From a virus, in the UHGV virus genome UHGV-0118722: a DNA stretch of 10,622 bases. One strand, written 5' to 3'. The position numbers were made by a program, and so were the translations under genes. Positions 7,219 to 10,622 of this stretch are shown in pieces. Each line of letters starts with the position of its first letter. The stretch's first letter is position 1. The notes beneath the pieces were generated by a model. The model had not been told where the DNA came from and did no database searches. It saw only the letters and a program-made list of their open reading frames with translations.

Positions 7219-7821
7219 TTAATTTCCTGCTTTCAGTTGCTTAAGACGACGTTTGAGTTCGCCATTCCGTGCCTTTTCGTTATTGAGTCGGCCCGTCTCC
7301 TTATCCAGCTTCGCCCGCAAATCAGTGATCTGCTGTTGATTGAAAGACACCGAATTCTGCGCGGACTTATAAGCGGCAACCACCTGAGCATTCCGCTGTT
7401 TTGCTTCTTGCAGGCGCTGAAAGTTGGATTTAACTGCCGGTTTCTTGTCTACCGGATTGGCAACACGCTTCGCTTTGGCGATCAGTGATTTCTGGAATTT
7501 TGCGGAGTTTTTGCGGGCCGCCTGTCCCATGACGGTACCAAGCGTCTTGATATCCGGCGACTGAGCGTTAGGAATAGCTTTTCCATTCAGTTTCACAGAC
7601 GATATATCGCCAGTATCGTTTACCTGTATGGCAAGAATTTGTCCGTCGTTAAGAACCAGCTTTGCGGTTTTAACTTTAACGCCATCTTTCGTTGTTGCGC
7701 GGTTGCTGGAGTCAACCTCAATTACCGTAACCCCGGTTTTATTGATCGCCGCGATAAGGGATTTCAGCCCCTTTTCATTAACCTGGTCAAAATCGACCGT
7801 TGCATACTTATTTTTCGTCAT
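7219..7821 (-). CDS. hdf: 200-aa paralogue of the central part of the downstream 639-aa protein, Hdf-like
   Basis: The ORF track gives 7219..7830. I prefer the second ATG (7819-7821) because AGGA lies 8 nt upstream of it, whereas the first ATG has no usable spacing. Shared motifs with the 639-aa protein include KNSAKFQ, encoded by a 21-nt stretch that is 20/21 identical between the two genes. Confidence 0.7.
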   Translation of the reverse strand: MTKNKYATVDFDQVNEKGLKSLIAAINKTGVTVIEVDSSNRATTKDGVKVKTAKLVLNDGQILAIQVNDTGDISSVKLNGKAIPNAQSPDIKTLGTVMGQAARKNSAKFQKSLIAKAKRVANPVDKKPAVKSNFQRLQEAKQRNAQVVAAYKSAQNSVSFNQQQITDLRAKLDKETGRLNNEKARNGELKRRLKQLKAGN

Positions 7822-7830
7822 CTGACACAT

Positions 7831-7991
7831 CCTGTGCGAGATTTATTACGTAACTTCTGCGGATTTGCTGAGTAACAGGGAAAATCCGATACAACGGGTT
7901 AATGAACGAGTCGCCATGCGTAACTATGACGTTGAAATGCCACAGTCGCTCTCCTTTATGCAAAGTAACTTCTCAACCGGTCATTTGTTGC
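7831..7991 (-). promoter_or_regulatory. 160-bp intergenic region upstream of the operon; possible internal promoter or operator
   Basis: Non-coding gap between two minus-strand genes. It contains the 7-bp inverted repeat CGGATTT-N15-AAATCCG at 7860-7888. No promoter hexamers could be assigned confidently by eye. Confidence 0.3.
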
Positions 7992-8273
7992 TTAAGAGGC
8001 ATTTCTATTGAGGTACGAATCGATAATCCTTTGTAACTTTTCAAGAATGAGCCTGTTATTGATGCTGCAAATAATAGTCACGCAATTCTGAAGACTTTCA
8101 TCCATACCCTTATATTCCGCGAAATACATGCCTATAAAGCCTGCAAGTACGGCAGCAATACACTCGGCCATCAATTGCCTGCATGACGCTTCGTAACGTT
8201 TTTCACGAACCCCATTCAGAAACGAATGCACCCCGCCAAGGATGGAGAGGAGCATTATTGTGAAATCAAACAT
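7992..8273 (-). CDS. Small two-helix membrane protein (93 aa), holin-like
   Basis: GAGGAAA ribosome-binding site 7 nt upstream of the ATG (8271-8273). Two hydrophobic segments (FTIMLLSILGGVHSF and IAAVLAGFIGMYFA). It is the first minus-strand gene after the divergent region next to the invertase. In P1 the lyd holin genes head the darA operon, so it may be LydA-like, but I do not recognise the sequence. Confidence 0.6.
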   Translation of the reverse strand: MFDFTIMLLSILGGVHSFLNGVREKRYEASCRQLMAECIAAVLAGFIGMYFAEYKGMDESLQNCVTIICSINNRLILEKLQRIIDSYLNRNAS

Positions 8274-8400
8274 AACTATTTCCTCAATAGTGAATTAAAT
8301 CTCATTGGGAAACGGTATGTACTTTGTGATTTCCACACATACTGGTTTTTGTTAATTAAAATCAGCAGCTTGCTATAAATAACGATAGTGAGCAGAAAAT
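8274..8400. promoter_or_regulatory. Divergent intergenic region between the holin-like gene and the invertase
   Basis: 127-bp AT-rich spacer between divergently oriented genes. It contains an imperfect palindrome GTATGTACTTTGTGATTTCCACACATAC (8315-8342), the palindrome TTAATTAA (8352-8359), and TTGCTATAAATAACGATAG just upstream of the invertase ATG. Confidence 0.35.
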
Positions 8401-8961
8401 ATGCTAATAGGCTATGTACGCGTATCAACAAATGAACAAAACACTGCTTTACAACGAAATGCCCTTGAAAGCGCAGGATGTGAGCTAATTTTTGAGGACA
8501 AGGCGAGCGGCAAAAAGGCTGAACGCCCTGGGTTAAAAAAGGTTCTTCGTATGCTTTCCAGAGGTGACACCCTGGTCGTATGGAAGTTAGATCGTCTTGG
8601 GCGCAGCATGCGTCACTTAGTTGTGCTGGTGGAAGAGCTGCGTGACAGAGGCATTAACTTCCGGAGTCTCACTGACTCCATCGACACCAGTACACCAATG
8701 GGGCGCTTTTTCTTTCACGTAATGGGGGCGCTGGCAGAAATGGAACGTGAACTTATTGTTGAACGTACACGCGCTGGACTTGATGCAGCTCGCGCAGAAG
8801 GTCGAATAGGTGGGCGTCGGCCTAAATACCAGAAAGAAACATGGCAGCAAATGCGGCGATTGCTGGAGAAGGGCATCCCCCGTAAGCAGGTTGCAATCAT
8901 CTATGATGTGGCTGTTTCCACTCTTTATAAGAAGTTTCCGGCGTCATCATTTCAATCCTAA
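8401..8961 (+). CDS. cin: Serine DNA invertase of the Hin/Gin/Cin/Pin family (186 aa)
   Basis: N-terminus [22 protein letters not shown] with the catalytic Ser in VRVST, the conserved ...[12 protein letters not shown]...[14 protein letters not shown]...[19 protein letters not shown]... core, and a C-terminal helix-turn-helix ...[20 protein letters not shown]. It closely resembles Gin and Pin as I recall them. I use the symbol cin because of the P1-like context, but pin or gin is equally possible. Confidence 0.93.
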
Positions 8962-8978
8962 ACCTTGGTTTAAGAGAA
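8953..8978. other. 26-bp crossover site for the serine invertase (hix/gix/cix-like)
   Basis: CAATCCTAAACC-TT-GGTTTAAGAGAA has palindromic inner arms AAACC/GGTTT around a central dinucleotide at 8965-8966, the same architecture as hixL (TTCTTGAAAACC-AA-GGTTTTTGATAA). The invertase stop codon (8959-8961) lies in the left half-site. Confidence 0.75.
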
Positions 8979-10004
8979 CTCGGTACCAGCGGTGAAAAGA
9001 TCCCCCTGTTGAGCACGGCTAACACATGGAGTGCACGCCAGACTTTCAACGGCGGGATCACCGGGGCGCTGACAGGGAACGCCGATACCGCAACGAAATT
9101 GAAAACAGCCAGAAACATTAATGGCGTCAGGTTCGATGGTTCTGGTGACATTAATATCAATACTCTGGTATCGCGCGGTCGCGTAACGGCCCTGGAGGCG
9201 AATGCACAGGGAACATCCGGGATTCAGCTGTATGAGGCATACAACAATGGCTACCCTTCCCCCTATGGCAATGTGCTTCACCTTAAAGGTGCCACCGCTG
9301 CTGGCGAAGGTGAGTTATTCATTGGCTGGAGTGGCACGAGCGGTGCCCATGCGCCCGTACATATCCGTTCGCGGCGGGATACTGATTCTGCCAACTGGTC
9401 TGAATGGGCGCAGGTCTATACGTCAAAAGATTCAATTCCCGGCGTCAATGCCAAAGGGGATCAGGATACCTCTGGTAATGCGGCTACAGCGACCAAGTTG
9501 CAGACAGCATGTACTATCAACGGCGTCTCGTTTGACGGTTCTAAAAATATTGAGCTAACGGCGGAAGATTTAAATCTACAGGAAACGGTAAACAAGGCTG
9601 ATAACGCGGTTCAAAAGACAGGCGATATCTTGTCCGGTGGACTTACTTTTGAAAACGACTCAATCCTTGCCTGGATTCGGAATACTGACTGGGCGAAGGT
9701 TGGTTTTAAAAATGATGCCGACAGCGATACTGATTCATACATGTGGTTTGAAACAGGCGACAACGGCAATGAATATTTCAAATGGAGAAGTCGCCAGAGC
9801 ACCACAACAAAAGACCTGATGAATCTTAAATGGGATGCTTTGTCTGTCCTTGTTAAAGCCCTTTTCAGCAGTGAAGTAAAAATATCGACACTCAATGCAC
9901 TAAGGATATTTAATTCATCTTTTGGTGCTATTTTTCGTCGTTCTGAAGAATGCCTGCATATCATCCCTACACGAGAGAATGAGGGGGAAAATGGGCTTTG
10001 TTGA
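8967..10004 (+). CDS. Tail-fibre variable C-terminal cassette, promoterless and truncated at its 3' end by an IS element
   Basis: The frame is open from 8931 through the crossover site with no upstream gene in frame, so no start codon is expected; the ORF-track start at 9009 is a TTG. It contains repeated tail-fibre motifs [28 protein letters not shown] and [28 protein letters not shown]. Native sequence ends at 9993; the last three codons and the stop (10002-10004) belong to the IS terminal repeat. Confidence 0.75.
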
Positions 10005-10622
10005 ATAAATCAGATTTCGGGTAAGTCTCCCCCGTAGCGGGTTGTGTTTTCAGGCAATACGCACGCTTTCAGGCATACCTGCTTTCGTCATTTTGTTCAG
10101 CGCTCGTACCAGGGCCATAGCCTCTGCAACCTGACCATCGTAGTCACGCAGTGTCAGTGAACCTCCGAACAGCTGTTTTACCCGGTACATCGCCGTTTCC
10201 GCTATCGAGCGACGGTTATAATCTGTTGTCCATTTCCACCGCGCATTACTCCCGGTCAGCCGCTGATTCGCAACAGCACGGTTACGGTCTGCATATTCAC
10301 CGGGCCAGTAACCCGCGCCTTTTCGGGGCGGGATAAGCGCGCTGATTTTCTTACGCCGCAGTTCATCGTGACAGAGCCGGGTGTCGTAAGCGCCGTCTGC
10401 CGATGCTGCCCTGATTTTTCTGTGAGTCTGCCGGATAAGACCCGGGAAGGCTTCTGAGTCCGTCACATTGTTCAGCGACAGGTCTGCACAGATGATTTCA
10501 TGTGTTTTGCTGTCAACTGCCAGATGCAACTTTCGCCATATACGACGGCGTTCTTTGCCGTGTTTTTTGACTTTCCATTCGCCTTCACCAAAGACCTTCA
10601 GCCCGGTGGAATCAATCACCAG
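9994..10622 (-). mobile_element. IS903/IS102-group (IS5-family) insertion sequence, partial (continues beyond the window)
   Basis: The terminal sequence GGCTTTGTTGAATAAATC at 9994-10011 matches the IS903 inverted repeat as I remember it. The sequence just inside differs from IS903 itself, so this is a relative. It contains a transposase ORF on the minus strand. Confidence 0.8.
10050..10622 (-). CDS. IS5-family (IS903-group) transposase, C-terminal part (N-terminus lies right of the window)
   Basis: The minus-strand frame is open to the window edge and ends ...RDYDGQVAEAMALVRALNKMTKAGMPESVRIA, with ...ADGAYDTRLCHDEL... upstream, typical of IS903-group transposases. The track's start at 10619 is an internal Met. 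Confidence 0.85.
   Translation of the reverse strand: MVIDSTGLKVFGEGEWKVKKHGKERRRIWRKLHLAVDSKTHEIICADLSLNNVTDSEAFPGLIRQTHRKIRAASADGAYDTRLCHDELRRKKISALIPPRKGAGYWPGEYADRNRAVANQRLTGSNARWKWTTDYNRRSIAETAMYRVKQLFGGSLTLRDYDGQVAEAMALVRALNKMTKAGMPESVRIA

Follow-up and report, generated by a model that had tools for sequence, protein, structure and literature searches.

Why does a single small holin-like gene stand before Dar-type antirestriction genes with no antiholin beside it? The window analysed here, the whole 10,622-nucleotide stretch of virus genome UHGV-0118722, carries such a gene at 7992–8273, and the original prediction offered two answers: either the antiholin has been lost, with consequences for lysis timing, or the protein is not a holin at all. 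Our analysis indicates that the locus is very probably an intact lydC gene of phage P1 beside the scar of a lydA–lydB deletion, within a decaying, IS-bounded piece of P1 DNA on a mosaic plasmid. Gene, family and role have all been described before; the deletion, derived and rare, is a private event in the ordinary decay of a phage remnant carried on a plasmid.

Identity of the gene at 7992–8273

The ORF map gives an intact gene for a 93-aa protein on the minus strand at 7992–8273, with the Shine–Dalgarno sequence GAGGA at 8281–8285. We compared its product with the lysis proteins of P1. It is identical to LydC (YP_006498.1) at 91 of 93 residues in an ungapped alignment (98%, E = 5e-67), and LydA (YP_006497.1) aligns with 32% identity over 84 residues (E = 1e-14), as a paralogue. 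Because the agreement is 91/93 with LydC and 32% with LydA, the alignments identify the ORF as lydC, the accessory holin gene upstream of the dar operon, and its product as the orthologue of P1 LydC, not of LydA. Relative to the P1 reference, the window allele carries C2F and C23R; it is a common natural allele, listed in exactly this form in 1128 blocks of a public collection and widespread in public assemblies. The protein scores 31.1 bits over residues 5–60 with PF16083, the LydA holin family (gathering cut-off 28.4), and matches PHROG 1527 'holin' with E = 5e-40. Two hydrophobic segments, at residues ~1–22 and ~33–53, give it a class II-like two-helix pattern, the helices being read from Kyte–Doolittle 15-residue means of at least 1.4, i.e. 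from hydropathy alone and not from a dedicated topology predictor. The C-terminal tail is neutral in net charge, not basic. A built-in antiholin produced by a dual start at Met1 and Met7 was considered and rejected, as Met7 has no preceding Shine–Dalgarno sequence. The expectation of a small two-helix holin-like protein before the Dar genes with no intact antiholin, together with the topology check proposed for it, is borne out by the ORF map, PF16083, the hydropathy profile and the NF052326 match of DarA.

The setting of the gene agrees with this assignment. On one side lies the divergent cin gene (8401–8961, plus strand) and on the other the −22 box of the late promoter LPdar (7963–7971). 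P1 LydC (P1 31251–31532) has the same 93 aa, the same position and orientation by cin, the same −22 box downstream, the same helices and the same Pfam family; in P1, however, lydC is followed by lydA and lydB, whereas neither is intact after the window lydC. P1 LydA shares PF16083 and the two-helix topology with the window LydC and differs from it in being a 109-aa protein, expressed from LPdar as the principal holin. An orthologue of LydA downstream of LPdar is absent from the window, and the window ORF sits upstream of the −22 box. That lydA opens the darA operon is right for P1 and does not carry over to the window, where the ORF is lydC and precedes that operon.

The 5′ region of lydC (8274–8400, minus strand) is, on reading the sequence, the divergent cin–lydC intergenic region; it holds the GAGGA motif and differs from P1 at three positions (8285, 8301 and 8364). 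A putative early promoter has been placed in this region (PMC9025707). A sigma-70 consensus scan of the region on the lydC strand gave one match, at 8428–8401, with a number of sites no higher than chance. No C1 repressor operator was found near lydC or elsewhere in the window with up to three mismatches allowed.

LydC has been studied directly by Bednarek et al. (2022), who described a protein of 93 aa with two predicted transmembrane helices and 29% identity to LydA (PMC9025707). In that work, lydC is transcribed as a single gene under a putative early promoter, directly before the late dar operon; cloned P1 lydC is lethal or growth-arresting, P1 lydC mutants show delayed lysis, and LydC can assist the lambda R endolysin, so that it behaves as a canonical holin in an accessory role only (PMC9025707).

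These results bear on the suggestion that LydC is a superinfection-exclusion or immunity membrane protein and not a holin. Such a role would suit a gene that lies outside the late operon under a promoter said to be of the early type (PMC9025707), that lacks a nearby C1 operator, that encodes a protein with a neutral rather than basic C-terminal tail, and that is intact in several of the P1 remnants described below. The retention in remnants is biased, however, because these were partly found by an exact search for intact LydC. Moreover, the protein passes the Pfam holin model, is homologous to LydA and, like Hdf, Hxr and DdrA, finds no match among the PADLOC defence models; the lethality of cloned lydC, the late lysis of its mutants and the ability of LydC to cooperate with the lambda R endolysin also speak against the suggestion (PMC9025707). 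We consider it very unlikely that LydC is anything other than a holin.

Deletion between lydC and hdf

In the P1 annotation, the local order is cin (plus strand), lydC (minus), LPdar, and then lydA, lydB, hdf and darA (all minus). BLAST arms and a per-base comparison place a deletion junction at 7957/7958 of the window, where 653 bp of P1 (NC_005856, 30565–31217) are absent; P1-type records each align to the window as two pieces, with ~653 extra bases in the record. A 2-bp microhomology, TA, is common to both arms at the junction. The deleted segment wholly contains lydA (P1 30854–31183), including its ribosome-binding site, and also removes codons 1 to ~98 of lydB and, apart from its first two bases, the six-base LPdar −10 element. 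What is left between lydC and hdf (7831–7991) is a 20-nt spacer, the −22 box, a hybrid −10 and the 3′ end of lydB.

The lydB remnant occupies 7808–7956 on the minus strand and comprises ~codons 99–147 and the stop codon, with no start of its own, as identified by PF16084 and by alignment. It matches profile positions 97–147 of 147 (E = 6e-30) and, in the comparison with P1 LydB that the original prediction called for, is identical at 48 of 51 residues over positions 97–147 (94%). A full-length lydB of 147 codons with its own start is absent from the window, the start and ~98 codons having been deleted. The P1 antiholin LydB (YP_006496.1, PF16084) is a full 147-aa protein, whereas the window copy retains the last ~50 codons and is non-functional; in P1 and the window alike, the lydB 3′ end overlaps the start of hdf. 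On the evidence of these alignments, the apparently empty 160 bp are the scar of a single 653-bp illegitimate deletion with 2-bp microhomology. They had been described as non-coding, a description that is right only on the surface for a stretch holding the −22 box, the junction and the end of lydB. The loss of the antiholin had been foreseen correctly, in that LydB is cut to its last ~50 codons; the account was incomplete, in that LydA and most of the −10 are gone too and the surviving holin is LydC.

Some smaller features of this region were also recorded. The N-terminal ~20 residues of P1 LydB, which belong to the part deleted in the window, are hydrophobic, with a 15-residue Kyte–Doolittle mean of up to 1.93; the 2022 paper describes LydB as having no predicted transmembrane domain (PMC9025707). 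At 7930–7955 (minus strand), the junction creates AAGGAG-N7-GTG, a strong ribosome-binding site before a 14-codon ORF outside the lydB frame, and a TTG within the −22 box opens a 51-codon frame across the LydB remnant. Neither of these two frames is likely to be meaningful. A search of the 160 bp that separate lydC from hdf for terminators and structured RNA found none; the fold z-score there is −0.39.

Late promoter LPdar

The 9-bp −22 box of P1 late promoters is AAGTNACTT, and the window keeps it intact as AAGTTACTT at 7963–7971, read from 7971 to 7963 on the minus strand; this site maps to P1 31222–31230, the annotated −22 region. In the P1 late-promoter-like sites that we found, the box is followed after 4 nt by TANNNT or by a hexamer with one mismatch from TANNNT, and the box-N4-TANNNT arrangement recurs in P1 before lyz, prt, gene R, gene 23, pacA and others. 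In the window, the hexamer 4 nt 3′ of the box is TAAAGG (7953–7958, minus strand), a hybrid of which the first two bases alone are original, the P1 sequence being TACCAT; the final conserved T is replaced by G. In the −10 of sigma-70 promoters, two bases matter most, and the last T is one of them. Since this T is lost, the hybrid hexamer should badly weaken or cripple the Lpa-dependent late transcription of hdf–darA–ddrA–ddrB–hxr. Since read-through from the lydC promoter would meet no terminator before hdf, it is a possible source of dar gene expression.

Content and boundaries of the P1 block

P1 and P1-like plasmid DNA is 97–99% identical to the window from ~1541 to ~9994. On the minus strand downstream of the scar, the dar operon is composed of hdf (7219–7830; 200/203 aa, intact, its start overlapping the lydB remnant; PF18788 and PHROG 1620, Hdf-like antirestriction), darA (5298–7217; 639 aa, intact; NF052326 anti_RE_DarA, 1092 bits), ddrA (4936–5301; 121 aa, intact; PHROG 1855, DdrA-like), ddrB (1936–4923; 995 aa, intact; assigned by length and position as P1 ddrB) and hxr (1638–1946; 102 aa; PHROG 2292, position as in P1). 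The lengths of hdf, darA and ddrA equal those of their P1 counterparts, and all five ORFs of the operon are full length. On the other side of lydC, the plus-strand cin gene for the DNA invertase is intact (PF00239 and PF02796, and the P1 annotation), cixL maps to ~8956–8975 by comparison with P1, and no differences from P1 occur in the cin/cixL stretch after 8922. The Sv′ tail-fibre segment of the invertible C region follows at 9009–9991 (plus strand), where P1 homology ends at ~9994 and the segment is cut by IS903B. Cin and cixL are present with neither a complete invertible segment nor a second cix site in view, so that cin has the appearance of an orphan invertase. Regarding a lysis partner, the ORF map and family searches found no endolysin or lysozyme gene in the window; in P1, lyz is unlinked, ~10 kb beyond hxr, and that side is replaced in the window by IS1 and ColE1 DNA.

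The left boundary of the P1 block is an IS1-family element (774–1541, minus strand) whose transposase frames are broken up, with NF033558 matching pieces of 54 and 107 aa; P1 homology stops at this element, 97 bp past hxr. Beyond it lies a ColE1-type mobilization region (1–773, plus strand) with the 3′ end of mbeA, recognized by the MbeA C-terminus, and mbeD; this DNA is 99% identical to the 5.1-kb plasmids CP057279 and CP057261. The site of the window IS1 differs from that of P1's own IS1, which is located between isaA and isaB. On the right, a partial IS903B-like element of the IS5 family (9992–10622, minus strand; NF033579, 217 bits) runs off the window. It is 99–100% identical to IS903B copies, and the IS903 terminal repeat GGCTTTGTTGAATAAATC begins at ~9994. 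The Sv′|IS903B junction was not found in GTDB representative genomes. The IS1|hxr junction of the window also occurs in the large mosaic plasmids AP018397.1 and CP034659.1 at 99–99.7% identity. In these two plasmids, the far side of the junction is an ompC-like porin gene and not ColE1 DNA. The differing far sides suggest recombination between IS1 copies. Should IS903B have simply inserted, and should the ColE1 DNA stem from an IS1-mediated cointegrate, the remainder of a P1 genome could lie beyond the 10.6-kb window.

Related remnants on plasmids

Four P1 remnants (UFZJ01000003.1, CP076767.1, AP018397.1 and CP034659.1) have DNA 99.7–100% identical to the window. Among relatives that retain the missing segment, the closest one found is CP076767.1, a 55-kb plasmid. 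Its lydC–lydA–lydB–hdf–darA–ddrA–ddrB–hxr block is apparently intact, with a sucrose (scr) operon on one side and an ompC-like porin gene on the other; both arms of the window are 99.96–100% identical to it, and by this comparison its arrangement is regarded as the ancestral state. There are no P1 structural genes within 10 kb in CP076767.1, so that the Dar and lysis genes form a free-standing island on the plasmid.

The other three remnants carry different lesions. AP018397.1 (pECTOK-001_2) has another deletion, which yields a lydA′–′ddrB fusion ORF of 765 aa. It was considered as a carrier of the window junction and rejected, since the start of its match at 7957 reflects no more than the window's own arm and its deletion is not that of the window. 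CP034659.1 carries an IS3-family element that separates the LPdar −10 from lydA and has the target duplication CCTC. We also discarded an IS-mediated origin of the 653-bp deletion, for which this element, 10 nt downstream of the breakpoint, was the candidate; its own CCTC duplication marks the two as independent events. UFZJ01000003.1 has the same 653-bp deletion as the window and, in addition, a 3.2-kb darA′–′ddrB deletion with a fusion ORF of 693 aa. Its neighbours are IS26, IS1, porin and scr genes, P1 structural genes being absent from the 10 kb around it, and an IS1 fragment lies 3′ of hxr. The outer flanks differ: those of the sister remnants are the scr operon, the ompC-like porin gene and IS26, whereas those of the window are ColE1 Mob and IS903B. 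Several independent lesions at or beside lydA are thus present among the sisters. A lethal holin might have been selected against once the phage was defunct, which these lesions would fit, in a sample that is small and biased.

From these comparisons, the P1 DNA of the window looks like one member of a lineage of remnants on IS-rich mosaic plasmids, decaying piecemeal. The full length of all five dar-operon ORFs speaks against a remnant in so far as decay is not far advanced; the window copy would accordingly stand at a fairly early point of this erosion.

The intact dar genes also invite a different explanation, namely that the deletion fused hdf–darA–ddrA–ddrB–hxr to the lydC transcript and so created an Lpa-independent antirestriction module under selection. 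The damaged late −10, the lack of a terminator or stable hairpin between lydC and hdf and the intact state of all dar ORFs speak for such a rewiring. However, the Dar proteins of P1 act only once packaged into P1 heads, and UFZJ01000003.1, which has the same junction, is already without half of darA and ddrB, which argues against selection. A selected rewiring accordingly has little to commend it and is, in our judgement, improbable to a high degree.

Consequences for lysis

The proposed explanation of the locus starts from the lydC product, a two-helix holin of class II type and a paralogue of LydA. One deletion, reaching from inside the LPdar −10 to codon ~98 of lydB, shortened the order lydC|LPdar|lydA|lydB|hdf|darA, and the same event removed LydA, inactivated LydB and changed the −10 from TACCAT to TAAAGG. 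To judge from what has been published on P1 LydC, to which it is 98% identical, LydC would insert into the inner membrane, form lesions at high concentration, collapse the membrane potential and aid endolysin-dependent lysis. Strong expression of the surviving lydC could still harm the membrane. With LydA and LydB lost and no endolysin gene in the window, however, the most likely state of lydC is that of a relic with little or no expression and not that of a timer in a working lysis cassette.

A rival account leads to early lysis: the ORF is a LydA-like holin of the operon, the antiholin alone has been lost and a working phage lyses earlier. An intact lydB is indeed absent from the window, and LydB is known to slow LydA-dependent lysis, so that P1 lydB amber mutants lyse prematurely (PMC9025707). 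The alignments, however, give LydC and not LydA, and lydA is entirely deleted. Without LydA, P1 fails to lyse E. coli in liquid culture, and no plaques come from the lydA lydD mutant, which is left with only LydC (PMC9025707), so that delay or failure, not early lysis, would be expected. The context, moreover, looks like a remnant and not a working phage. Early lysis from a surviving LydA-like holin is extremely unlikely. The consequences for lysis timing that had been raised are probably moot, given that the P1 DNA looks like an IS-bounded remnant and that LydC alone gives no plaques (PMC9025707).

Authenticity and frequency of the deletion

To place the deletion among P1-like plasmids, we compared the window with PLSDB, in which ~476 plasmids match the flanks and 475 carry the 651-bp lydA–lydB segment. 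At least 80% of this segment is kept in 471 of the ~476 P1-like plasmids (~99%), mostly at an identity of at least 99%. Among sampled contigs with the Hdf allele of the window, lydA and lydB lie upstream of hdf in all ten, and eight of the ten show the full series lydC(93)–lydA(109)–lydB(147)–hdf. A 52-mer across the junction is absent from the phage collection, PLSDB and complete E. coli genomes, and a 30-mer is absent from GTDB representative genomes, IMG/VR and JGI metagenomes; these DNA searches used exact words, so that a copy with an SNP near the junction could escape them.

One other public assembly with the identical junction TTTGCATAAAGGAGAGCGACTG was found through an exact-protein look-up of LydC. 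This is UFZJ01000003.1 (GCA_900448345.1), which is 99.97% identical to window 6177–9043, a 2.9-kb stretch across the junction. Because this independent assembly has the identical junction, we regard the deletion as genuine and inherited, not as an assembly error. That the 653 bp are missing in the assembly only, by an assembly or cloning artefact, might be thought from the single junction and a microhomology of merely 2 bp, but the second assembly and the lack of any nearby repeat of the lydA–lydB segment able to collapse an assembly make this practically negligible.

Implications for P1-type remnants

Two readings would give the locus a wider meaning: a selected loss of the lethal LydA/LydB and of the Lpa promoter, with lydC retained, which would put the intact dar genes under the Lpa-independent lydC promoter, or a role of LydC other than lysis. 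We hold out very slight prospects for them. If the first were true, the locus would be a plasmid module able to supply a superinfecting P1-like phage with products for antirestriction; the alternative would be a function of LydC in the lysogen or plasmid host apart from lysis. For the reading that we prefer, an intact lydC beside a deletion scar in a decaying P1 remnant, the meaning lies in annotation. The gene at 7992–8273 should be annotated as lydC (accessory holin) and the next 160 bp as a lydB pseudogene fragment with a truncated LPdar. A deletion scar can thus mimic an unusual arrangement of a 'holin without antiholin', and the finding is of little import beyond this correct annotation.
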